Below the pieces are notes generated by a model, which was not told the origin of the DNA, did no database searches, and saw nothing but the letters and a program-made list of their open reading frames with translations. This document shows, piece after piece, positions 50,651 through 60,578 of a DNA stretch of 64,000 bases. The number at the start of each line of letters is the position of its first letter. Position 1 is the first letter of the stretch. Position numbers and translations under genes: made by a program. The DNA comes from Dehalococcoidia bacterium (lineage in GTDB: Bacteria > Chloroflexota > Dehalococcoidia > SM23-28-2), in contig CP070630.1 in NCBI GenBank assembly GCA_020356025.1, positions 1,831,697 to 1,895,696 on the forward strand, written 5' to 3'.

Positions 50651-52204
50651 TCAGCCCTTTCTGCTGCGCTCTCGCTCGATGAGCTCGCGCCGTAGGATCT
50701 TGCCGGCGGCCGACTTGGGGATCTCCGACAGGTACTCCACCTCGCGAATCTTCTTGTAGGGCGCCACCTTCTCCGCCACGAAGGCCATCAGCTCTTCGGG
50801 GCTGGCCTCGGACCCCTCCTTCAGCACCACCAGCGCCTTGGGGATCTCGCCGCCCTCCAGCTGGCGCTTAGGGATGACGGCGGCGTCCAGGACGGCCGGG
50901 TGTTCGTACAGCAGGGCCTCCAGCTCCGCCGGCGCCACCTGGTAGCCCTTGTACTTGATCATCTCCTTCTTCCGGTCGAGGATGTACAGGTAGCCGTCCT
51001 CGTCCTGCCAGCCGATGTCGCCGGTGAGTAGCCAGCCGTCCTCGCTGAGGCACTCCCTGGTCTCCTCCGGACGCTTCCAGTAGCCCTTCATCACCTGCGG
51101 GCCCTTCACCGCCACCTCGCCAACCTCGCCCGCGGGCAGCTCCTCGCCGGTGTCCAGGCTCACGATCTTCTCGAAAGTGTCGGCCATCGGCAGGCCTACC
51201 GACTCCAGCTTGATCCGATCCAGGGGATGGGTGTTGGTGCTGGGGCTGGTCTCAGTCAGTCCGTAGCCCTGCAACACCAGACAGCCGTAGATCGATTTCA
51301 CCCGCTCCGCCACCTCCGGAGGCAGCGCCGCCGCTCCAGAGTGGACCAGTCGCAAGGCAGACGTGTCGAAGCGCGACGGGTTCGGCACGTTGGCCATAGC
51401 CAGCACCGCCGGCGGCGCCAGATAGAGGTTCGTCATACCGTACTTGCCCACCAGCTCCAGCATCTGCTCCACATCGAACCGCATCATGACCACGCCGGTG
51501 ATGCCCAGGGCAACCCCTATGCTCAAGAGCACAGTCATCCCGTAGATGTGGAAAAACGGCAGCACGCACAGGCTCACGGCATCCGATGTTAGCTGCCCCG
51601 TCGCCAGCCCCTGCTTGACGTTGGAGGTGATATTGTGGTGGGTCAGCATCACGCCCTTGGGAAGGCCCGTCGTGCCGCTGGAGTAGGGCAATACAGCGAT
51701 GTCCTCGCGAGCGTTGATGTCCACCGCACGGTACTCTTCCGAGACATCCCCCAGCAGGTTCGGCAGCCCCTCGATGGGCCAGACGTGGCGCAATCGGGGG
51801 AGATTCTTGCGGGCCACCTCCACCGGGGCAGCCATCGGGCCGAAGGCGAACAGCGCGACGGCCTCGGCGTCGTCCAGTTGGTGCTCGATCTCCCGCTCCC
51901 GGTAGAGCGGGTTGAGCGTCGTGACCGTGGCGCCAGCCAGGAGGATACCGTAGAACACCGATGCGTAGTCTACGTAGTTGGGCGAGAAGATGCCCACCTT
52001 GTCGCCCTTCTCGATGCCGTGGTCCTGCAGCAAGCGCGACACCTTGCAGGCGTGGCTCCACAGCTCGCGGTAGGTGCGCGTCGTCCCGTCTGCGCCGATC
52101 AGGGCCGGCTTGTCGCCAAAGGCCTCCGCCGACCGATGCAGCAGCTCCGGCAGGGCAAACTCCTCGTAGGGGGCCTGACTGGGCCAGTGTCCCGAGACAA
52201 CCAT
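50651..52204 (-). CDS. AMP-dependent acyl-CoA ligase (long-chain/4-coumarate-type)
   Basis: 517 aa; YSSGTTGLPKGV, GYGLTE, TGDIGWQDEDGYLYILDRKKEMIKYKG motifs. Confidence 0.88.
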   Translation of the reverse strand: MVVSGHWPSQAPYEEFALPELLHRSAEAFGDKPALIGADGTTRTYRELWSHACKVSRLLQDHGIEKGDKVGIFSPNYVDYASVFYGILLAGATVTTLNPLYREREIEHQLDDAEAVALFAFGPMAAPVEVARKNLPRLRHVWPIEGLPNLLGDVSEEYRAVDINAREDIAVLPYSSGTTGLPKGVMLTHHNITSNVKQGLATGQLTSDAVSLCVLPFFHIYGMTVLLSIGVALGITGVVMMRFDVEQMLELVGKYGMTNLYLAPPAVLAMANVPNPSRFDTSALRLVHSGAAALPPEVAERVKSIYGCLVLQGYGLTETSPSTNTHPLDRIKLESVGLPMADTFEKIVSLDTGEELPAGEVGEVAVKGPQVMKGYWKRPEETRECLSEDGWLLTGDIGWQDEDGYLYILDRKKEMIKYKGYQVAPAELEALLYEHPAVLDAAVIPKRQLEGGEIPKALVVLKEGSEASPEELMAFVAEKVAPYKKIREVEYLSEIPKSAAGKILRRELIERERSRKG

Positions 52205-52481: not shown

Positions 52482-53138
52482 ATGGCCCTTGCTGACGAGT
52501 TCACCCGAGAGCGGCCCATGCTGCGGGGCGTGTCCCATGTTGGCGCAACCATTGCCGCGATGCTTGGGGCACCCTTGCTTTTGTTGGTTGCGGACTCGCC
52601 ACGGGCGTACGTCGGTGGGGCGATCTTCGCGACGAGCCTGATTCTTCTATACGGCACCAGTGCGGCCTATCACCACATTGCCTGGACGCCTCTCTTCCGA
52701 GCGATCATCAGCCGGCTGGACCATTCGATGGTTCTGGTGCTGATCGCCGGCACCTACACGCCGCTTTGCCTCGTTGTGCTGAGCAACGCGTGGGGGATCA
52801 CCATGCTGTCCGTGGTTTGGGGAGTGGCAGGCGCCGGCATCATCACGAACCTGGCCCGGCCGGCGACACCGAGATGGCTCCGGGTGACCTTCTACGTCAT
52901 CCTCGGCTGGCTCGCCCTGGCGTCGGCGGGGGAACTGGCTGCGCGGCTTTCGGCCAGCCCGTTAGCGCTTCTCGTGCTGGGCGGGGTACTGTACACCGTG
53001 AGTGGAATCGTCTACGCGGTTAGGAAGCCGGACCCGTGGCCGCGAGTGTTCGGACACCTTGAGGTCTTCCATCTGCTGGTTATCGCTGGAAGCGCCCTGC
53101 ACTACTCATTGGTCGCGATCTACGTGCTGCCGAGCTAG
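52482..53138 (+). CDS. hemolysin III / PAQR-family membrane protein
   Basis: 218 aa, seven hydrophobic segments, SAAYH, LDHSMV and HYS motifs. Confidence 0.82.
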   Translation: MALADEFTRERPMLRGVSHVGATIAAMLGAPLLLLVADSPRAYVGGAIFATSLILLYGTSAAYHHIAWTPLFRAIISRLDHSMVLVLIAGTYTPLCLVVLSNAWGITMLSVVWGVAGAGIITNLARPATPRWLRVTFYVILGWLALASAGELAARLSASPLALLVLGGVLYTVSGIVYAVRKPDPWPRVFGHLEVFHLLVIAGSALHYSLVAIYVLPS

Positions 53139-53171: not shown

Positions 53172-53237
53172 ATGACGGCAGCAGCCCTCGCCCTCACCGC
53201 TGGCGCCTGGTACGCAAGGAGCCGTTGGCTGATCTAG
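53172..53237 (+). repeat. orphan copy of an Ala-rich hydrophobic-tail-coding repeat (MTAAALALTAGAWYARSRWLI*)
   Basis: About 60 nt similar to 55185-55247 (shared gccctcaccgc...gcctggtacgcaag); lies in frame after the TAG stop of the hemolysin III gene. Confidence 0.6.
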
Positions 53238-53390: not shown

Positions 53391-55184
53391 ATGAGAAAGC
53401 TGCCGCTTGGCTTGCTTGTCCTGGCCATCCTTGCCGTCGCCTCGCTCGCGAGACCAGCCGCAGAAGCCACCCCTGGCGCTACCATCATCGTAGACACCAC
53501 CGACGACGAACTCAACGCCGATGGCGATTGCTCTCTGCGGGAAGCGATCCAGGCAGCCAACGCTGATGCCGCCGTTGACGCCTGCACCGCTGGCAGCGGC
53601 GCCGACACGATAGTCCTGCCGGCCGGCACCTACACACTGACCATTGATGGAAGGGAAGAGGATGCCGCTGCTACGGGCGACCTAGACATCAGCGATGACC
53701 TGACCCTCACCGGCGCTGGCCAGGCAATCACCGTTATTGACGGCGGCGCCCTCGACCGGATCTTTCACCTGATCGGCTCCGTCACCGTAGAGATCGCCGA
53801 CGTGACGATCCAGAACGGAATTGCTTCAGGTGCCCCCGGCGGTGCTATCCGCAACAGCGCCACGCTCACCCTCATCAACGTTACCGTAAGCGGCAACACG
53901 GCTCCCGCGTCTCCTGGCGGTGACGGCGGCGGCATCGCCAACACCGGCACGCTGACGCTCAACAGCACCACTGTCAGCGACAACACGGCGCGCTTTGACG
54001 GCGGTGGCATCCTAAATGATGGCGGCACGCTGACGATCAACAGCAGCACTGTTAGCGACAACACAGCAGGGATGTTCGGCGGCGGCATCGATAACTACGT
54101 GGCTGACCTGCAGATGAGTAACAGCACCGTCAGCGGAAATGCGGCCACCGGCGACATCACGTGGGGTGGAGGCATCTGCAACATCGGTGGCAACGCCACG
54201 CTCACCAACGTCACCATCAGCGGCAATTCAGCCACTAGCCCGTACGACGACTACAGCGACGGTGGCGGCATTTTCAGTATGCCCGAAATAATCATCTTCA
54301 TCGACCCACCCGGCAGTCAGATCATCCCTGCCACGCTGACGCTCACCAATGGCACCCTGCGAGACAACTCAGCCAGCGAAAGCGGGGACAGTATAGCCAA
54401 CGACTCCTACAGCACCGTGAGGCTCAAGAACACCATCGTCGAAGGCGGCGCCACTAGCGTAAACTGCACCGGCAACATTTACTCCGACGGCCACAACCTA
54501 GACAGCGGCAACACCTGCGGGTTCCATCGTTCCAGCGACCTCAACGACACCGACCCCATCCTCGGCCCGCTACAGGACAACGGCGGTCCTACTCAGACCC
54601 ACGCCCTGCTTGCCGACAGCCCCGCCATCGACGCTGGCGATAACACTGACTGCCCTACCACCGATCAGCGTGGTATTCCCCGACCGGTAGATGGGGACGA
54701 CGATGGCAGTGCTACCTGCGATATCGGAGCGTTCGAGTATTGCGGGGATACCGACACGGACGGTGATGGCATCGGCGACATCTGCGACCCCGACGACGAC
54801 AACGACACCATCCTCGACGCCAACGACAACTGCCCGACGGTGCCCAACCTCGGCCAGGAGGACTTCGAGCCGGACGGCATCGGCGACGCCTGTGACCACA
54901 GCGACGGAGACGACTTCGTCGATGCGGTCGAGTTGTACCTGGGTACCGACCCCCAGGACGACTGCACCGACGAAATAGGCGTGCATGACGCCTGGCCCCT
55001 GGACATCAGCATAGACATGTCTGTCACCGTGGTGGGGGACGTTCTCGCCTATGCGGGCAACATCGGATTGCCGGTGGGCGGCGACCCGATCCTCCAGCGG
55101 CTGAACATCAACGTCGACAGCAACATCACCGTGGTGGGCGATGTCCTCCCGTTTAGCGGGAACGTAGGAGCGACCTGCACGTAG
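53391..55184 (+). CDS. secreted parallel beta-helix protein (choice-of-anchor-Q-like) with thrombospondin type-3 Ca-binding repeats and two dockerin-like repeats
   Basis: Signal peptide [26 protein letters not shown]; [25 protein letters not shown]; repeated GGGI.N.G.LT..ST.S.N units; [37 protein letters not shown]; [18 protein letters not shown] / [18 protein letters not shown]. Confidence 0.8.
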
Positions 55185-55247
55185 GCGACAGCGGCGGTGG
55201 CCGCCCTCACCGCCGCCTGGTACGCAAGAAGGCGCTGGCCGACGTAA
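55185..55247 (+). repeat. second copy of the hydrophobic-tail repeat, in frame after the TAG of 53391..55184 (ATAAVAALTAAWYARRRWPT*)
   Basis: Manual translation of the 20 codons following TAG 55182-55184; nucleotide similarity to 53172-53237. Confidence 0.6.
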
Positions 55248-55268: not shown

Positions 55269-55297
55269 TTGACTCCTCAGATAGCGTGAGCTAGCAT
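55269..55297 (+). promoter_or_regulatory. putative promoter TTGACT-17-TAGCAT
   Basis: ttgact 55269-55274, 17-nt spacer, tagcat 55292-55297; SD gaggaggg 55322-55329 precedes GTG 55336. Confidence 0.45.
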
Positions 55298-55335
55298 ATT
55301 CGTGGCATGAGATAGGCGCTTGAGGAGGGTTCGTT

Positions 55336-55923
55336 GTGGATAGGAAGCAAGCAAAGCAGCTTCTGGCGGAGGTGCTCGGGATCATCGAGGAACTGGACAT
55401 TCCGGAGGATCTTCGGCCCACAGCGCTGCAACTCCTCTGGGCCGATCTCAGCCCAGCACGCGCTGCTGTGCCGAGCACAAGCCCAGCACCCGCTGCTCTG
55501 CCCAGCACAAGCCCAGAAGAAGCCGCGTCTTCTGACGCTCTCAAGGCCCTCGGCACGCGCCTCGGCATCAGTGACCTCGGCCGCCTGGCCGATTTGTACG
55601 CGACCACCGAGGATGGGATGTTGGAGGTCAGCGTGCCCACCACCAAGCTTCCAGCGGAGAAGGCAGCCTCAACCACACAATTGGCGCTTCTCACGTGTGC
55701 CGGCCGCCAAGCCGCTGGCGAATCCGTCACCCTGTCTGCTACCCTAAGAGCCGTCTGCGAACAGTATGGCAAGCTCAACCCCCCCAACTTCGCTAGGACC
55801 TTGAAGGACGCCGACCAGCTCTGGATCATTGGCGGCCCGCGCCTACAGAAGACCTACAAGCTCCGCAACCCGGGCTGGGAAGAGGCGAAGAAACTTGTGA
55901 AGCAGCTTGCCGACATCTCCTAG
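55336..55923 (+). CDS. hypothetical protein: helical N-terminus, Pro/Ala/Ser linker with a tandem decapeptide, C-terminal wHTH-like region
   Basis: 195 aa, good SD, translationally coupled to the next ORF. I do not recognise a family. C-terminal PPNFARTLKDADQLWIIGGPRLQKTYKLRNPGWEEAKKL resembles the wHTH of the downstream ORF. Confidence 0.55.
   Translation: MDRKQAKQLLAEVLGIIEELDIPEDLRPTALQLLWADLSPARAAVPSTSPAPAALPSTSPEEAASSDALKALGTRLGISDLGRLADLYATTEDGMLEVSVPTTKLPAEKAASTTQLALLTCAGRQAAGESVTLSATLRAVCEQYGKLNPPNFARTLKDADQLWIIGGPRLQKTYKLRNPGWEEAKKLVKQLADIS
55451..55516 (+). repeat. 30-bp tandem repeat, 2.2 copies, inside ORF 55336..55923
   Basis: gcccagcacgcgctgctgtgccgagcacaa / gcccagcacccgctgctctgcccagcacaa / gcccag; 27 of 30 identical; encodes (A)AVPSTSPAP/AALPSTSPEE. 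Confidence 0.85.
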
Positions 55924-55925
55924 CC

Positions 55926-56765
55926 GTGTCTGATGCCTTAGCGCTCCAAATCCAGCAACTGGGAACCTATGTGGACCAGACACTGGTTCTCACACACGTG
56001 GCCGAGCTACAGAGTCCAGACCGGTCAGCCCCCCCAGCTGGTATAAGGGGGATGTTCATACAGCTGCGATTACCACCCCCCTCGAACATATCCCGGAATC
56101 TGGCAATCCTCGCCGACCAAGGCTTCGTTATGCAGCCGGGACATGGCCAGTGGGCCACCACCCCAACGGGAAAGGAACGCCTCCGCATCCTCATGGCAGG
56201 CGTCGACGATGAGCAACTCCAGCGCCTCGTCGACCAGACCGAGGAGGCCGAGTTCAGCAACACCCGACACCACCTGCTTCCTCCCCAACTGGCTCCAGCA
56301 GCTTTCCAGGTCGGAATCGGGCGGTTCCTAGAGGGCCACCCGTTCGATCGGAACGTTCTGTGCATGTCGAGATTTCCGCGCACCCGGGGCGACCCCATTC
56401 ATGACGCTATCGCCGTGTCCCGCAGCACTTGCGCCGAGGCCGGGTTCGAGATGCATCTCGCCTCAGACCGCGTGGTCGAAGACTTGCTCTTTGGAAACGT
56501 CGCCGCCGCTATGTGGGCGAGCCGCTTCGGTATTGCCGTCTTCGAGGATCGAGTGGGTGAGGGGCTCAACTACAACGTGATTCTGGAAGTGGGAGCAATG
56601 CTCGCGACCGGTCGCCGTTGCCTTCTGCTCAAAGACGTAACCATCGGCACGCTTCCCACAGACCTAGTGGGACACATCTACCAATCCATTGATCTCGATG
56701 ATCCGGCAACCATAGCCACCGCCGTCGCTCGCTGGATTACGCAAGACCTCGGGCTCGGCGGCTAG
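55926..56765 (+). CDS. wHTH N-terminal domain fused to a TIR-like (COG4271 / CAP12-type) nucleotide-processing domain
   Basis: 279 aa. N-terminus SNISRNLAILADQGFVMQPGHGQWATTPTGKERL (winged helix). C-terminus VLCMSRF...FGIAVFEDRVGEGLNYNVILEVGAMLATGRRCLLLKDVTIGTLPTDLVGHIYQSIDLDD matches by eye the (R)xNVxFElG....G.....l.k.....PSDl.G..Y hallmark of TIR-like domains. Confidence 0.6.
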   Translation: MSDALALQIQQLGTYVDQTLVLTHVAELQSPDRSAPPAGIRGMFIQLRLPPPSNISRNLAILADQGFVMQPGHGQWATTPTGKERLRILMAGVDDEQLQRLVDQTEEAEFSNTRHHLLPPQLAPAAFQVGIGRFLEGHPFDRNVLCMSRFPRTRGDPIHDAIAVSRSTCAEAGFEMHLASDRVVEDLLFGNVAAAMWASRFGIAVFEDRVGEGLNYNVILEVGAMLATGRRCLLLKDVTIGTLPTDLVGHIYQSIDLDDPATIATAVARWITQDLGLGG

Positions 56766-56860
56766 CCTCGCCGCTTCTACCCAGACGTACAGCCTTACTG
56801 ACGCCGGCACCCACACCACCCGCGTGCTATACTCCCGCTGCTCCCGCCACCACCACCGCC

Positions 56861-57292
56861 AACCAGACCGGCGGCGCCACGCTCTCCGTGCTCCATCCGC
56901 CGCGCGATTTCTTGGATGCCACCGCCGACGAGGACGACAACTCGCTGGTGCTGAAGGCCAGCCTGGGAGATGCCGCCTTTCTCCTGACGGCGGACATCGG
57001 CGCAGACGGCGAGGCGTACCTGCTGGACAGCGATACAGACCTGCGCGCCCCCGTGCTGAAAGTAGCCCACCACGGCTCCCGCGCCTCCACCTCCACCGCC
57101 TTCCTGGCCGCCGTCGAGCCCCTCACGGCCGTCATCTCGCTGGGCGAGGACAACCGCTACGGCCACCCTTCGCCCCAGACGCTCGACCGGCTGGGCACCC
57201 ACCCCGTCTTCCGCACCGACCTCCACGGCGACGTGCAGATCACCACCAACGGCCACAAGCTCTGGATCAAGACGCAGCGGGGCAGAGGGTAA
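56861..57292 (+). pseudogene. comEC: comEC/rec2 3' fragment (C-terminal part of the metallo-beta-lactamase domain only)
   Basis: GGATLSVLHPPRD...DDNSLVLKASLGDAAFLLTADIGADGEAYLL...APVLKVAHHGSRASTSTAFLAAVEPLTAVISLGEDNRYGHPSPQTLDRL...FRTDLHGDVQI matches the ComEC C-terminus. The HxHxDH part and all membrane domains are absent upstream. Confidence 0.75.
57117..57276 (+). repeat. direct repeat copy 1 (comEC 3' end, about 160 bp)
   Basis: Near-identical to 58187-58346, with a handful of substitutions seen by eye. Confidence 0.85.
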
Positions 57293-57396
57293 CCCGCTGG
57301 CGGCGAAAACTTCTTCCCTCGCCAGCTCTCGCGGCTACGCGCACTCCGTGATGGCCTTCGATCTAATCAGATTACCCTGATAAGTATTGCCCCCTA

Positions 57397-57425
57397 TTGA
57401 CAATGTCCTGCAAGGGGTGTATACC
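57397..57425 (+). promoter_or_regulatory. near-consensus promoter TTGACA-17-(TG)TATACC
   Basis: ttgaca 57397-57402, 17-nt spacer ending in gtg, tatacc 57420-57425; in an AT-richer spacer. Confidence 0.5.
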
Positions 57426-57488
57426 CTGCTTGCGGCTGTCTTATGTCGGCAACCACGAATGTTGAGAGTCGATGAAAGGAGGACAAGC

Positions 57489-57803
57489 ATGGCACTCTAC
57501 ATCACGAACACAGTCAGGATCAAACCAGGGCATGTCCAGGACTTCTTCGCGTGGACGCCGAAGGTGATCCCCATCTACGAGAAGTATGGCGTGAAGTTCC
57601 ATGGAGCGTTTCAGGCTGTGGGCGGCGAGGGGAACGTCGCCGTTTACCTGGTGTCGGTCCGAGACTTTGCGGCCTGGGGAGACGTCAACCAAAAGCTACA
57701 AGCGGATGCGGACTTTCAGGCGGCGCAGCGCGAGGGGGGCAATCACATCGACGGGAACGTCATCCAAGCTCTCACGCCGTTGCCTGGCTCAGGGATGGAG
57801 TAA
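57489..57803 (+). CDS. NIPSNAP-like / dimeric alpha-beta-barrel small protein
   Basis: 104 aa from ATG 57489 (SD aaggagg). MALYITNTVRIKPGHVQDFFAW...VAVYLVSVRDFAAWGD pattern. Confidence 0.55.
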   Translation: MALYITNTVRIKPGHVQDFFAWTPKVIPIYEKYGVKFHGAFQAVGGEGNVAVYLVSVRDFAAWGDVNQKLQADADFQAAQREGGNHIDGNVIQALTPLPGSGME

Positions 57804-57868
57804 GGACGTCTGACGAGCGGAATCGGCAACGGGCCAGCAAACGTGGCCAAGGAGGAAGGAGAAAGCCG

Positions 57869-58162
57869 ATGGCTACATATGTGTCGCTGGTTCGCTTCAC
57901 TGACCAGGGCATCCGCGGCGTCAAGGACGCGCCCGAGCGCATCGCCGCCGTTGAAAAGTTGCTGGGCCAGGTCGGTGCCAGAATGAGTGAGATCTACCTG
58001 ACCATGGGCCGCTATGACTATGTGGTGATCATGGAGGCTCCCGACGACGAGACGGTGACCAAAGCGGCGTTGGCGGTGAGCTCGCTGGGCAACGTTCGCA
58101 CCGAGACCCTGCGGGCCTACACGAGGCCGGAGATCGGGAAGATCATCAGCGGCCTGCCGTAG
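57869..58162 (+). CDS. GYD-domain protein
   Basis: 97 aa: MATYVSLVRFTDQGIRGVKDAPERI...LTMGRYDYVVIMEAPDDETVTKAALAVSSLGNVRTETLRAY, the canonical GYD family pattern. Confidence 0.85.
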   Translation: MATYVSLVRFTDQGIRGVKDAPERIAAVEKLLGQVGARMSEIYLTMGRYDYVVIMEAPDDETVTKAALAVSSLGNVRTETLRAYTRPEIGKIISGLP

Positions 58163-58180
58163 GCCTATCCTTCCTGACGA

Positions 58181-58362
58181 CGGTGAAGCCCCTGACGGCC
58201 GTCATCTCGCTGGGCGAGGACAACCGCTACGGCCACCCTTCGCCTCAGACGCTCGACAGGCTGGGCAGGCGCCCCGTCTTCCGCACCGGCCTCCACGGCG
58301 ACGTGCAGATCACCACCAACGGCCACAAGCTCTGGATCAAAACGCAGAGAACTGGGCACTAG
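58181..58362 (+). pseudogene. comEC: second comEC 3' fragment (last about 55 codons)
   Basis: VKPLTAVISLGEDNRYGHPSPQTLDRLGRRPVFRTGLHGDVQITTNGHKLWIKTQRTGH*, a duplicate of the end of the 56861..57292 fragment. Confidence 0.75.
58187..58346 (+). repeat. direct repeat copy 2 (comEC 3' end)
   Basis: See 57117-57276. Confidence 0.85.
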
Positions 58363-58386
58363 TCACCTCACTCCCCACATAAACCA

Positions 58387-58418
58387 GTAGCGGGCGCGCC
58401 ATCGGCTACGCCCGCTAC
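58387..58418. terminator. GC hairpin between convergent comEC fragment and TadG-like gene
   Basis: gtagcgggcg (58387-58396) pairs with cgcccgctac (58409-58418); on the minus strand it is followed by tggtttatg. Confidence 0.4.
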
Positions 58419-58449
58419 CCACGTCGGTCGTTCCCTCAGACGCTCTCTA

Positions 58450-59475
58450 TCACTCTACCAGCCGCACGAAGCGGATCAAGCTATCGGGCTCTAGAGCCCC
58501 AATCAGGCTGCCCACATCGGCCTGAGCATCCATGAACCAGCCGGTGACCTCGCAGTCGTTGCCCGTGCAGCTACCCAGCTCCTCGAGGAAGAACATTGCG
58601 AACTTCAGTATAGTCACCTCGCAACGGCCGTGGCACAGCTCTTCGATGACCGGAACGACGACCACCCTATTGCTATCGTGGGCTCCACCTGGCCCAAACG
58701 GATTGCAGCGCGTTTTCAGCCGATACGTGTCACCGTCCTCCTGAAAGACCTCCTCAAATTCGTCGCACGCCGAGCTGGTCTCGTCGATACGCCAGTTCAC
58801 GCCCGTGCGGGTGGGGCCAGTCATATTGCCGGGCTCCGTCTCCGTAGTAGGATCAGTACAGGTGGGCTGGCTTTCAGAACAGAGGGCGGTCTCAGAGCCG
58901 TACTTGATTGTCTCACGGTAGATGCTGGCACCGTCACCGTCGATGGCCAGGGCGCCGAAGTTGCCATGGTCGACATCGGTAGCGTCGTACTTGAGAACCG
59001 TCGGCTCATCAAGCTCGATGGCATCCTCCAGAACGCCAAAAGGCACTAGCCCCCCCATCCCAGCGGGCGAGCCCACGCGCGCGGTGGCATCGGCGCTCAT
59101 CGTGTCGCTGCTAAAGCCCAGCACGCGGGCAAACATAAATGGGACGTCTCGGCTCACCTCGACGGTAATGGTGTCATCGGCGATGTAGGTAGTGCTTATC
59201 TCGATGGACTCAAGCTCACCGGCATCGATTCCGTTGTTCGCCGCCCACTCCTCCGCCTTCTGCACGGCGTCGGTCGGCGACTCGGGCAGTTCCTGCGCTC
59301 CGGCCAGGGCAGCGGCATCAGCCGACTTCTGAAGCTCCCTCCTCTCGTGCAGGAATACCCCCACATCGATAGCTATGGCCGCAAACGCCATGATCACCAC
59401 CATCGCCAGCGCCGCCACCACGAGGCCCTGTCCCCGCTCCTCAACAACTTTCCCCACTACCAATCTCCCCAACAT
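58450..59475 (-). CDS. TadE/TadG-like (Flp-pilus-assembly N-terminal domain) protein, orphan
   Basis: N-terminus ERGQGLVVAALAMVVIMAFAAIAIDVGVFLHERRELQKSADAAALAGA is typical of the TadG-like family; no other tad genes in the window. Confidence 0.7.
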   Translation of the reverse strand: MLGRLVVGKVVEERGQGLVVAALAMVVIMAFAAIAIDVGVFLHERRELQKSADAAALAGAQELPESPTDAVQKAEEWAANNGIDAGELESIEISTTYIADDTITVEVSRDVPFMFARVLGFSSDTMSADATARVGSPAGMGGLVPFGVLEDAIELDEPTVLKYDATDVDHGNFGALAIDGDGASIYRETIKYGSETALCSESQPTCTDPTTETEPGNMTGPTRTGVNWRIDETSSACDEFEEVFQEDGDTYRLKTRCNPFGPGGAHDSNRVVVVPVIEELCHGRCEVTILKFAMFFLEELGSCTGNDCEVTGWFMDAQADVGSLIGALEPDSLIRFVRLVE

Positions 59476-59815
59476 AGCACCTACCTCCGCTCGATGCGAC
59501 TCCTCTTTCAGCCTTCTCCCTCTATGCGCTTAGACGCTTAACATAAGCATTCGCTACATGTAGCTCCTTATGCGATAGGCATCCGAAAAAGGACGTTGTT
59601 ACATTTGCGTCTACCCGCGAATGGTAGGCAAGAACCGCGTATCCTCAATGTTAGGCTAGCACTCTAGTCCTGATCTGCTACATGACAAAGGAGTAAAAAG
59701 CGGTAGAAACCTGGTTAAAGAAGGCTGCTCCATTCCAGTTGCAGCCGTCGAGTTGCCCACCCCGTGCTATACTCCTCCTGCCGTCATCGCCCTGGATGGC
59801 CTCGCTTCCCTGCCG

Positions 59816-59824
59816 GTGCTATAC
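59816..59824 (+). promoter_or_regulatory. extended -10 box TGCTATACT 10 nt upstream of the rph ATG (near-leaderless); twin box at 59765-59773
   Basis: ggtgctatact at 59814-59824, ATG 59835, no SD in between; a second ccgtgctatact lies 51 nt upstream. Confidence 0.45.
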
Positions 59825-59834
59825 TGACAGCGCC

Positions 59835-60578
<744 letters not shown>

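Follow-up and report, generated by a model that had tools for sequence, protein, structure and literature searches.

Bacteria, plants and animals all rely on TIR-type enzymes as central immune effectors, and those known from bacteria are, to our knowledge, activated by second messengers, by scaffolds of the Argonaute or NLR type, or by proteins of phages. Among them are the PF10137/COG4271 effectors of CBASS and Pycsar, a branch whose characterised members are, as far as we know, NADases. In the type II toxin-antitoxin (TA) pairs TacAT, AtaRT and KacAT a small DNA-binding partner is encoded ahead of the toxin, and the antitoxins of toxins of the TacT/AtaT/KacT type known to us are ribbon-helix-helix DUF1778 proteins. 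The AbiJ-NTD families join one targeting domain to alternative HEPN, TIR, nuclease and deoxyribosyltransferase domains (Anantharaman et al. 2013, PMC3710099). Compact modules of one or two genes that stop growth by depleting NAD+ are further known in RES-Xre, MbcTA and DUF4062 'Swarozyc', the last being a recently recognised divergent TIR-like NADase family that acts as a single-gene defence (bioRxiv 10.64898/2026.05.01.722283). Here we analyse two adjacent genes, ORF1 and ORF2, in a stretch of 64,000 nucleotides (the window) from a Dehalococcoidia bacterium (assembly GCA_020356025.1, contig CP070630.1, positions 1,831,697 to 1,895,696), which we read, with a probability of about 0.55, as a self-contained, co-transcribed conflict module, that is, a TA-like or abortive-infection pair in which ORF2 would be the effector and ORF1 its partner.

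With the PF10137 effectors of CBASS and Pycsar, ORF2 shares its predicted fold class, the block N-x-N-V-x-x-E-x-G ... G-[KR]-R-x-x-L-L ... P-[ST]-D-L-x-G-x-x-Y and the tendency of the domain to be fused into conflict modules, whereas it differs from them in having no cyclic-nucleotide sensor domain or cyclase and in possessing a winged helix at its N-terminus as well as a partner gene for a small winged-helix protein. The TacAT, AtaRT and KacAT loci resemble it in the small DNA-binding partner upstream, the toxin downstream and the coupling of the two genes, and ORF1-like proteins do precede such GNATs; however, the partner here consists of a hairpin, a linker and a winged helix, and the putative toxin of the window is TIR-like and itself bears a winged helix. 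The combinatorial logic of the Abi proteins (PMC3710099) would also apply, with the winged helix taking the part of the recognition module, although those proteins are mostly single polypeptides with other N-terminal domains, whereas a separate winged-helix partner gene is nearly always present here. RES-Xre, MbcTA and DUF4062, with which the module would share its proposed mode of growth arrest, differ in toxin fold (RES, MbcT) or in TIR-like family (DUF4062), in the partner and in the control domain. Membership of DUF4062/Swarozyc was rejected, none of 53 members of the ORF2 family having matched DUF4062. The nucleoside 2'-deoxyribosyltransferases (NDTs), DNPH1 (Rcl), MilB and BcmB are near in structure, carry a Glu in what would be an equivalent strand-loop-helix motif and correspond to weak PF05014 matches over the same residues, but they are stand-alone metabolic or biosynthetic enzymes with neither a winged helix nor a dedicated partner gene. 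A first-pass annotation of this DNA had held that the pair lacks a described equivalent, and this appears to be so: no system model of PADLOC-DB v2 is matched by the pair, and literature searches found no described pair of winged-helix and TIR-like proteins, no account of PDC-S35 and no PF10137-based TA system, which does not prove that none exists. As an effector domain, that of ORF2 forms a new branch, below threshold, of the known PF10137 family, and nucleotide depletion by a compact module is already known; it is the control architecture that is different, as it lacks a second-messenger sensor and a cyclase and has instead a winged helix fused to the effector and a paralogous partner, likewise with a winged helix, that also serves other toxins.

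Judged by the homologues that both families have, ORF1 and ORF2 are real genes. At least 199 proteins of about 279 amino acids (40-86% identity) are homologous to ORF2, and the ORF1 profile finds 136 proteins of about 190 amino acids; none of these homologues has a functional annotation or a precomputed Pfam domain. At the loci of homologues the pair mostly abuts or overlaps by a few bases. The public gene call for ORF2 starts at Met43 and yields 237 amino acids, and GTG 55926 is the better start since the first 42 residues are conserved across homologues. In 1.9 kb, a consensus scan found a single sigma-70-like site against 0.3 expected from shuffled sequences, and when the upstream region of the window was aligned with those of the four contigs that hold the closest homologues having context (L116-L119), both hexamers and the 17-nt spacing proved invariant while the spacer sequence and the flanks diverge, so that the promoter is backed by conservation and not by consensus alone. 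Both the translationally coupled operon and its own TTGACT-17-TAGCAT promoter, as first annotated, are thereby upheld, coordinates included (Table 1). Directly after the -10 hexamer lies a palindrome, CTCATG-A-CATGAG, which is perfect in the same four contigs and imperfect in the window (left arm 4/6) and which is a candidate operator. The pair has the organisation of type II TA loci in that two small, adjacent, co-directional and coupled genes stand behind their own promoter.

The association of the two genes is deeply conserved. A scan with one genome per species returned 71 ORF2 loci, from Chloroflexota (Dehalococcoidia), many Actinomycetota (Solirubrobacterales, Mycobacterium, Microbacterium, Nocardioides, Aeromicrobium, Amycolatopsis, Leifsonia), Verrucomicrobiota, Deinococcota (Trueperaceae), Pyrinomonadaceae and Dormibacterota. 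A small winged-helix partner lies no more than 1.4 kb upstream in 59 of the 60 loci with full-length ORF2, window included; in 52 of the 60 the partner gene adjoins ORF2 or overlaps with it, both being on one strand. The collection of homologue pairs called for at the outset thus found the pair kept. These partners fall into at least three classes, whose N-terminal modules differ (a helical hairpin or one of two small beta-rich types) and whose winged helices are related. On the ORF2 tree the partner classes form blocks, among which several switches occur. Additional paralogues that encode small winged-helix proteins often lie near ORF2 loci. In three Dehalococcoidia loci the class C partner is divergent from the ORF2 homologue (L002:5593-6027, L017:7438-7929 and L056:7449-8027, all on the minus strand), and the L002 copy seems to be truncated ahead of the recognition helix.

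Beyond the partner, nothing accompanies ORF2 with any regularity. No Pfam family occurs in more than 2 of 140 proteins flanking 35 of these loci, and clustering of all flanking ORFs returned only the partner classes, antisense shadows and tyrosine recombinases, the latter lying no more than 6 kb away in 16 of 74 loci. The unit is self-contained because no third gene recurs among the flanking proteins; its copies are frequently, though not invariably, found on mobile DNA and show no clear enrichment in defence islands. The first-pass annotation had noted that the partners of known TIR systems are missing, and the wider sample agrees: the neighbour genes of the window encode no cyclase, SIR2, Argonaute or STING, no partner of the cyclase or ThsA type recurs among the 140 flanking proteins, and neither the Pfam scan nor the structural model places a signal-sensing domain (SAVED, STING, cNMP-binding or SLOG) on ORF2.

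The strongest functional clue, which the first-pass annotation could not see, is the promiscuity of the partner, which points to TA-like logic. A reverse search that started from ORF1-like proteins, for which a sub-alignment was used because the wide ORF1 alignment was too diverse, revealed that the gene immediately downstream of the ORF1-like partner varies between loci (Table 1). An ORF2-like protein is encoded there in eight loci; in three others the place is taken by a GNAT acetyltransferase that passes the PF00583 cut-off and whose closest solved relatives are the TA toxins TacT, AtaT and KacT (6g96, E=3e-20). The partner family is thus found beside recognised toxins elsewhere, as would be expected of a TA component, and the GNAT loci imply a new antitoxin type for this toxin class. 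The gap between the ORF1-like gene and the GNAT gene measures 38-57 nt and is devoid of a DUF1778-type antitoxin ORF. Two further groups of downstream proteins were found. One is a 259-aa family whose C-terminal winged helix aligns with the N-terminal winged helix of ORF2 (P=1.3e-5); the other comprises proteins of 220-246 amino acids, which look like a further effector type. Their respective motifs RNNRxVGH and LRNxSGHP resemble the Rx4-6H signature of HEPN domains, a likeness that we offer as a lead. A constant upstream partner combined with interchangeable downstream genes of toxin type is the hallmark of TA and abortive-infection modules.

As for the nature of the effector, the AlphaFold2 (AF2) model of ORF2, built on a 53-sequence alignment (pLDDT 87.9), comprises a winged helix, a linker and a five-stranded beta/alpha domain, the strands of which (residues 143-147, 175-178, 201-206, 231-237 and 252-255) alternate with helices. 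The block NVILEVG...GRRCLLLKD...LPTDLVGHIY is the most conserved part of the family, and the Glu of NVILEVG, to which the first annotation had drawn attention, is invariant (E221) both in the alignment of 53 members and in a wider one of 29 sequences, where it is joined by A179, N191, N215, G223, M225, L235 and W270. E221 falls within the stretch that aligns to PF10137 profile positions 77-118. ORF2 itself scores 11.8 bits against PF10137 (E=0.25; gathering score 24.7 bits), and sub-threshold matches to this family, which includes the CAP12 and Pycsar TIR domains, occur in 15 of the 53 members (best E 8.6e-4); PF05014 (nucleoside 2-deoxyribosyltransferase; cut-off 28.8 bits) is matched below threshold by 6 of the 53, and the Pfam scan gave ORF2 itself no PF05014 match. 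In PADLOC-DB v2, which indeed holds no model for the pair, the sole match of ORF2 is PDC-S35 (E=0.054, residues 216-257); ORF1 has no PADLOC match at all and nothing above threshold in the Pfam, NCBIfam or PADLOC scans.

The decisive link of the ORF2 domain to PF10137, which runs via intermediates, came from an exhaustive search with a profile of the C-terminal domain alone, which retrieved 1591 clusters at E<=1e-3 and 1245 at E<=1e-10. The relatives P0183, P0224 and P0220 match this profile at E 2e-35 to 7e-30 and exceed the PF10137 gathering score with 31.2, 29.2 and 28.8 bits, respectively, whereas the PF05014 scores of the domain relatives reach at most 21.3 bits and never the threshold. 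Some relatives are fused to STALD-type SLOG domains, to a CHAT protease or to HEAT repeats, which are typical fusion partners in conflict systems; others carry the domain at either end of the protein together with a second domain of no assigned type. The best-scoring Foldseek matches in the PDB are larger flavodoxin-like proteins, some unrelated folds and, besides, compact domain-sized structures, among which DNPH1/Rcl, nucleoside 2'-deoxyribosyltransferases, the CMP N-glycosidase BcmB and the TIR domains of MAL, AbTir and TIR-1/SARM1 recur at target TM scores of 0.5-0.7; the solved PF05014-type structures 4kxm, 4fyi, 8rh3, 4jen and 2a0k give 0.49-0.72. Among viral models the best matches are deoxyribosyltransferases (E 8e-4), a hydrolase of CMP and hydroxymethyl (hm)-CMP, and TIR proteins. 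The profile and Foldseek searches proposed in the first-pass annotation hence return a fold of the flavodoxin/TIR/deoxyribosyltransferase type. On this evidence the C-terminal domain is correctly described, at the level of superfamily and branch, as a divergent PF10137-type TIR-like domain, and the model places it between TIRs and the deoxyribosyltransferase/DNPH1 group, by structure at least as near to NDTs, DNPH1 and CMP N-glycosidases as to classical TIRs. The original TIR-like (COG4271) assignment accordingly stands for superfamily and branch, on indirect support by way of intermediates and fold, and is qualified by the sub-threshold score of ORF2 itself and by the similar structural proximity of NDT and DNPH1.

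ORF1 and ORF2 have a winged helix in common. The AF2 model of ORF1 (pLDDT 82.4) shows a helical hairpin, a disordered linker and a C-terminal domain that ends in a canonical winged helix; the top of its Foldseek ranking is occupied mostly by DNA-binding proteins of the winged-helix type, with E-values that are weak. By hhalign, ORF2 residues 13-94 align with the C-terminal winged helix of the ORF1 class at P=2.1e-6 and with that of a second partner class at P=9.5e-9, and the two partner classes align with one another over this region at P=3.7e-4; on these profile alignments the winged helices of the ORF2 N-terminus and the ORF1 C-terminus are homologous, as the earlier reading by eye had claimed. 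In the scan of the 53 ORF2 family members the N-terminus gives weak MarR/ArsR-type profile matches. A predicted DNA-binding domain (residues 109-191) together with a disordered segment (residues 39-62) is the make-up of a type II TA partner, and such an architecture, which ORF1 shares with many antitoxins, supports the conflict-module reading. The linker of ORF1 contains a 30-nt tandem duplication (55450-55509, 90% identical) encoding SPARAAVPST/SPAPAALPST; close homologues are 10-11 residues shorter and gapped in the linker, whose length thus varies between lineages.

If the pair is a conflict module, ORF2 would be a nucleotide N-glycosidase toxin that cleaves the N-glycosidic bond of an essential nucleotide by means of the invariant Glu221. 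NAD+ would be its most likely substrate, since the sequence link goes to PF10137 and the relatives show SLOG fusions; because the structure is also near NDT, DNPH1 and CMP N-glycosidases, NADase activity is only one of several possible chemistries, and a mononucleotide, as in DNPH1 or MilB, or DNA would be the alternative. ORF1 would keep ORF2 from acting, whether through direct binding or by sitting on the same DNA sites, and would repress the promoter of both genes via the palindrome that adjoins the -10 hexamer, thereby regulating its own synthesis. If ORF1 were lost or titrated away, or if the winged helices recognised a foreign protein or foreign DNA, ORF2 would be freed and would then assemble and deplete the nucleotide until growth stops. 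The analysis shows the gene pair, the conservation of its promoter and of the pairing, the folds, the links by homology and the promiscuity of the partner; enzymatic activity, substrate, toxicity, neutralisation, trigger, operator and defence role are all things that we infer. In a more tentative extension, which seems to us possible at best, the pair would belong to an undescribed and widespread combinatorial family of conflict systems, and the winged helix would be a common handle through which small, fast-evolving partners control interchangeable toxins (a PF10137-like TIR, two HEPN-like types and a TacT-like GNAT), with winged helices pairing on DNA. Repression of the operon would then fall to the partner, as would holding the toxin in its monomeric state, and the binding of foreign DNA or the loss of the partner would template the TIR-like domains to assemble as an active nucleotide glycosidase. 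If true, this would amount to DNA-templated TIR activation without any second messenger.

Several observations weigh against a conflict module with an enzymatic toxin. ORF2 passes no curated family threshold in the Pfam, NCBIfam and PADLOC scans; searches of PDB sequences with ORF2, the family, the domain, widened profiles and a bridging relative gave weak winged-helix matches and nothing for the C-terminal domain, so that no solved structure lies within sequence reach of it; and the Foldseek E-values of the ORF2 model against the PDB are 2.5e-3 or worse, which is because the query is a two-domain model. The equivalence of Glu221 to the catalytic Glu of TIRs and NDTs would follow from its position in the motif alone, and ligand binding without catalysis also occurs in flavodoxin-like folds. 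Among the alternative effectors, a HEPN identity has the motif and neither Pfam nor PDB matches in its favour, and some ORF1-like genes have no obvious adjoining effector. As for the surroundings, no clear enrichment next to known defence genes, for which the first-pass annotation had proposed a test, was seen: PADLOC returned from the 140 neighbours only scattered hits (mad8 four times, mad3 twice, HerA twice, and ThsB, DrmD, DRT and a methyltransferase once each); in the lineage of the window the module keeps a stable place between comEC and rph, a setting unlike the typical defence island; and relatives of the ORF2 family are absent from the IMG/VR viral contigs and phage genomes searched. 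A phage origin of the module was rejected on the strength of that same search.

The logic of the system might be right and the chemistry another, with ORF2 acting in the manner of DNPH1, MilB, BcmB or the NDTs to remove bases from (deoxy)nucleoside monophosphates, perhaps phage-modified ones such as hm-dCMP or hm-dUMP, or even, with the winged helix as its guide, from DNA rather than acting on NAD+. Its structural neighbours DNPH1, the NDTs and BcmB, at target TM 0.55-0.72, speak for this chemistry, as do the NDTs and the CMP/hm-CMP hydrolase among the best viral matches and the weak PF05014 matches, which extend from the family to many relatives; a DNA-directed glycosidase would moreover suit the fused DNA-binding domain, and the NDT domains of Abi proteins have been proposed to act on DNA (Anantharaman et al. 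2013, PMC3710099). We nevertheless hold it to be doubtful, given that the family links above threshold to PF10137 and never to PF05014 and that STALD-SLOG fusions are typical of NAD-centred TIR/SIR2 systems. The NADase activity of the characterised members of the PF10137 branch, to the extent of our knowledge, tells against it as well. It is likewise improbable, in our view, that ORF1 serves an abortive-infection system as sensor or adaptor, with a variable N-terminus that recognises a phage component and with contacts between winged helices that recruit and oligomerise ORF2 or the alternative effectors and so activate them: the position of the partner upstream is that of an antitoxin, also ahead of the TacT-type GNATs, which are normally checked by an upstream antitoxin, and neither a phage-derived trigger nor enrichment in defence islands can be made out. 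This arrangement would account for the highly variable N-terminal domains of the partners, of at least three types, as expected of sensors in an arms race, for the winged helix as the only element common to partner and effectors, in the way of effector-associated domains elsewhere, and for the extra small winged-helix paralogues in many loci, and TIR enzymes generally require assembly for activity.

Less likely is a purely regulatory role without toxicity, in which ORF2 would be a one-component transcription factor whose flavodoxin/TIR-like domain does no more than bind a nucleotide or NAD-related ligand and ORF1 a paralogous co-regulator on the same operators. Regulators commonly combine a winged helix with a ligand-binding domain of Rossmann-like type, the winged helices of the two proteins are related, the module is lodged stably between housekeeping genes in the lineage of the window, and in one locus (L001) it sits in an NAD biosynthesis cluster beside an NrtR-like regulator; yet no target or neighbour gene is conserved over 35 loci, the distribution across phyla is patchy with integrases often nearby, the domain is fused to CHAT, SLOG and HEAT and is the main cargo of tiny plasmids, the partner family precedes genuine GNAT toxins, and the invariant Glu lies in a motif of catalytic type. 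Very improbable is the view that the pair is a remnant of Thoeris, CBASS or Pycsar, the known signalling TIR systems, and that the partner gene has been lost or is located elsewhere. PF10137 is indeed the TIR type of CBASS and Pycsar effectors, and a ThsB-like neighbour occurs at one homologous locus, but ORF2 bears none of the sensor domains of such effectors (SAVED, STING, cNMP-binding or SLOG), no cyclase, ThsA or SIR2 adjoins it in the window or recurs in the 35 loci, and the winged-helix partner is its only conserved neighbour.

Table 1. Features of the ORF1-ORF2 module, genes around it and genes found downstream of ORF1-like partners. Positions are those of the window unless a locus handle (L) is given.
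Feature	Position	Strand	Description and basis
Sigma-70-type promoter	55269-55297	+	-35 TTGACT 55269-55274, 17-nt spacer, -10 TAGCAT 55292-55297; consensus scan and conservation
Candidate operator	55299-55311	+	Just 3' of the -10; TTCGTG-G-CATGAG in the window; putative role, from alignment of five upstream regions
Shine-Dalgarno GGAGG	55324-55328	+	7 nt ahead of the ORF1 GTG; kept in relatives
ORF1	55336-55923	+	195 aa, GTG start, stop TAG 55921-55923; small winged-helix partner, proposed antitoxin/regulator; ORF list, family of 136, AF2 pLDDT 82
ORF1 N-terminal helical hairpin	55342-55449	+	Residues 3-38; conserved 'P.DLR..AF' motif; AF2 and alignment; same module in other small winged-helix paralogues
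ORF1 disordered linker	55450-55521	+	Residues 39-62, Pro/Ala/Ser-rich; pLDDT <50; variable in the family
ORF1 C-terminal winged helix-turn-helix	55660-55908	+	Residues 109-191; AF2: H109-126, H134-143, H149-158, wing E163-166/E173-176, H178-191
Coupling junction	55921-55928	+	ORF1 TAG, 2 nt, ORF2 GTG
ORF2	55926-56765	+	279 aa, GTG start; winged helix fused to TIR-like/NDT-like domain, proposed toxin/effector; ORF list, at least 199 homologues
ORF2 N-terminal winged helix	55962-56207	+	Residues 13-94; hhalign to partner winged helix, AF2 elements, weak MarR/ArsR/DtxR-type profile matches
ORF2 linker	56208-56300	+	Residues 95-125; near-invariant H115-x3-P119-x3-A123-P124 motif; pLDDT 60-75
ORF2 C-terminal TIR-like/nucleoside-deoxyribosyltransferase-like domain	56301-56762	+	Residues 126-279; AF2 fold, Foldseek, weak PF10137/PF05014 matches
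Glu221 codon (GAA)	56586-56588	+	Invariant Glu of NVILEVG, predicted catalytic residue; putative equivalent of the TIR/NDT catalytic Glu by motif position
AMP-dependent ligase	50651-52204	-	
HlyIII	52482-53138		
Repeat-rich surface protein	53391-55184		597 aa, thrombospondin-3 repeats
ORF1-ORF2 module	55336-56765		
134-aa fragment	56888-57292		ComEC C-terminal HHGS...GHP motif
NIPSNAP	57387-57803		
GYD	about 57870-58162		
Second ComEC tail fragment	58183-58362		
TadG-like	58450-59475	-	
RNase PH (rph)	59739-60578		
ORF2-like gene after ORF1-like gene	8 loci		Winged-helix and TIR-like protein
GNAT acetyltransferase gene after ORF1-like gene	3 loci: L087:624-1160, L090:4253-4846, L091:2821-3357		178 aa; passes the PF00583 cut-off
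259-aa family after ORF1-like gene	6 distinct, e.g. L075:5546-6325, L092:2974-3753, L109:5112-5888		Invariant LYEIRNNRxVGHxGGD motif (includes RNNRxVGH)
220-246-aa proteins after ORF1-like gene	L097/L098, L099/L100; L097:5076-5816, L099:2730-3392, L100:2817-3560		N-terminal winged helix, C-terminus LNLRN[RK]SGHP

Turning to the surroundings of the module, the nearest relatives (ORF2 72-75% identical) show the 3' end of comEC followed by ORF1, ORF2 and rph, the last two genes being only some 70 nt apart. In the window this ORF2-rph spacer, with its 22-nt box GTGCTATACTCC, is found in duplicate (56820-56841 and 59760-59781), and the two copies bracket an insert of about 2.9 kb (region 56766-59781) that separates ORF2 from rph and holds both copies of the comEC 3' end (57099-57277 and 58169-58347, 92% identical) together with the NIPSNAP, GYD and TadG-like genes. 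Because relatives share the arrangement comEC-module-rph and the insert of the window is bracketed by duplicated spacer, the module is older than the mosaic around it. The first-pass annotation had described a mosaic accessory region and taken it as a sign of defence function; the mosaic does exist around the module, which is nonetheless not part of it, and shuffled surroundings are no evidence on what the module does, the neighbours of its homologues being heterogeneous. A recent horizontal arrival of the module in the window was rejected as well, for its GC content of 0.61 equals that of the flanks, the 64-kb window contains no tRNA gene and the relatives share the gene order.

At 55182-55247 the surface-protein ORF upstream of the module ends in an in-frame TAG, and the next 20 codons read ATAAVAALTAAWYARRRWPT followed by a stop; this stretch is hydrophobic, has a basic tail and resembles a C-terminal anchor. 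A copy of 57 nt (72% identical) at 53176-53232, which encodes AAALALTAGAWYARSRWLI followed by a stop, lies upstream of the surface-protein gene, just after HlyIII. The two anchor copies suggest either the replacement of a cassette within an older surface-protein gene or an anchor that is interrupted by a stop or read through.

Two other settings of the family or its domain may be recorded. In a Dehalococcoidia metagenome-assembled genome (L001:992-9196) the partner and the ORF2 homologue lie inside an NAD biosynthesis cluster, with nadB and nadC upstream and nadA and the NrtR-like Nudix regulator downstream; the partner protein is identical to that of L005. Such a placement is curious for a predicted NAD-cleaving enzyme, yet it may be coincidence. 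On 3.5-kb enterobacterial plasmids (non-mobilisable in Citrobacter freundii, with related ones in Salmonella and Klebsiella) the largest gene carries a relative of the ORF2 domain: in the Citrobacter plasmid L120 (NZ_OW967268.1, 1648-2586) it encodes a 312-aa hypothetical protein that matches ORF2 residues 179-272 with 40% identity in its C-terminal domain and has an unrelated N-terminal domain. To be the main cargo of so small a plasmid fits a role in conflict or addiction, and the plasmid gene would be a tractable model.

Homologues in culturable Mycobacterium, Microbacterium, Nocardioides, Aeromicrobium and Amycolatopsis, as well as the domain relative on enterobacterial plasmids, make these predictions directly testable. 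The divergent domain extends over some 1,600 sequence clusters, and at its thresholds Pfam places the ORF2 subfamily in no family. A promiscuous ORF1-like partner would add a family of antitoxins or adaptors that links TIR-like, GNAT and probable HEPN toxins, and if a fused winged helix and a paralogous winged-helix protein are all that controls the TIR-like effector, the control logic would be a new and highly compact one.

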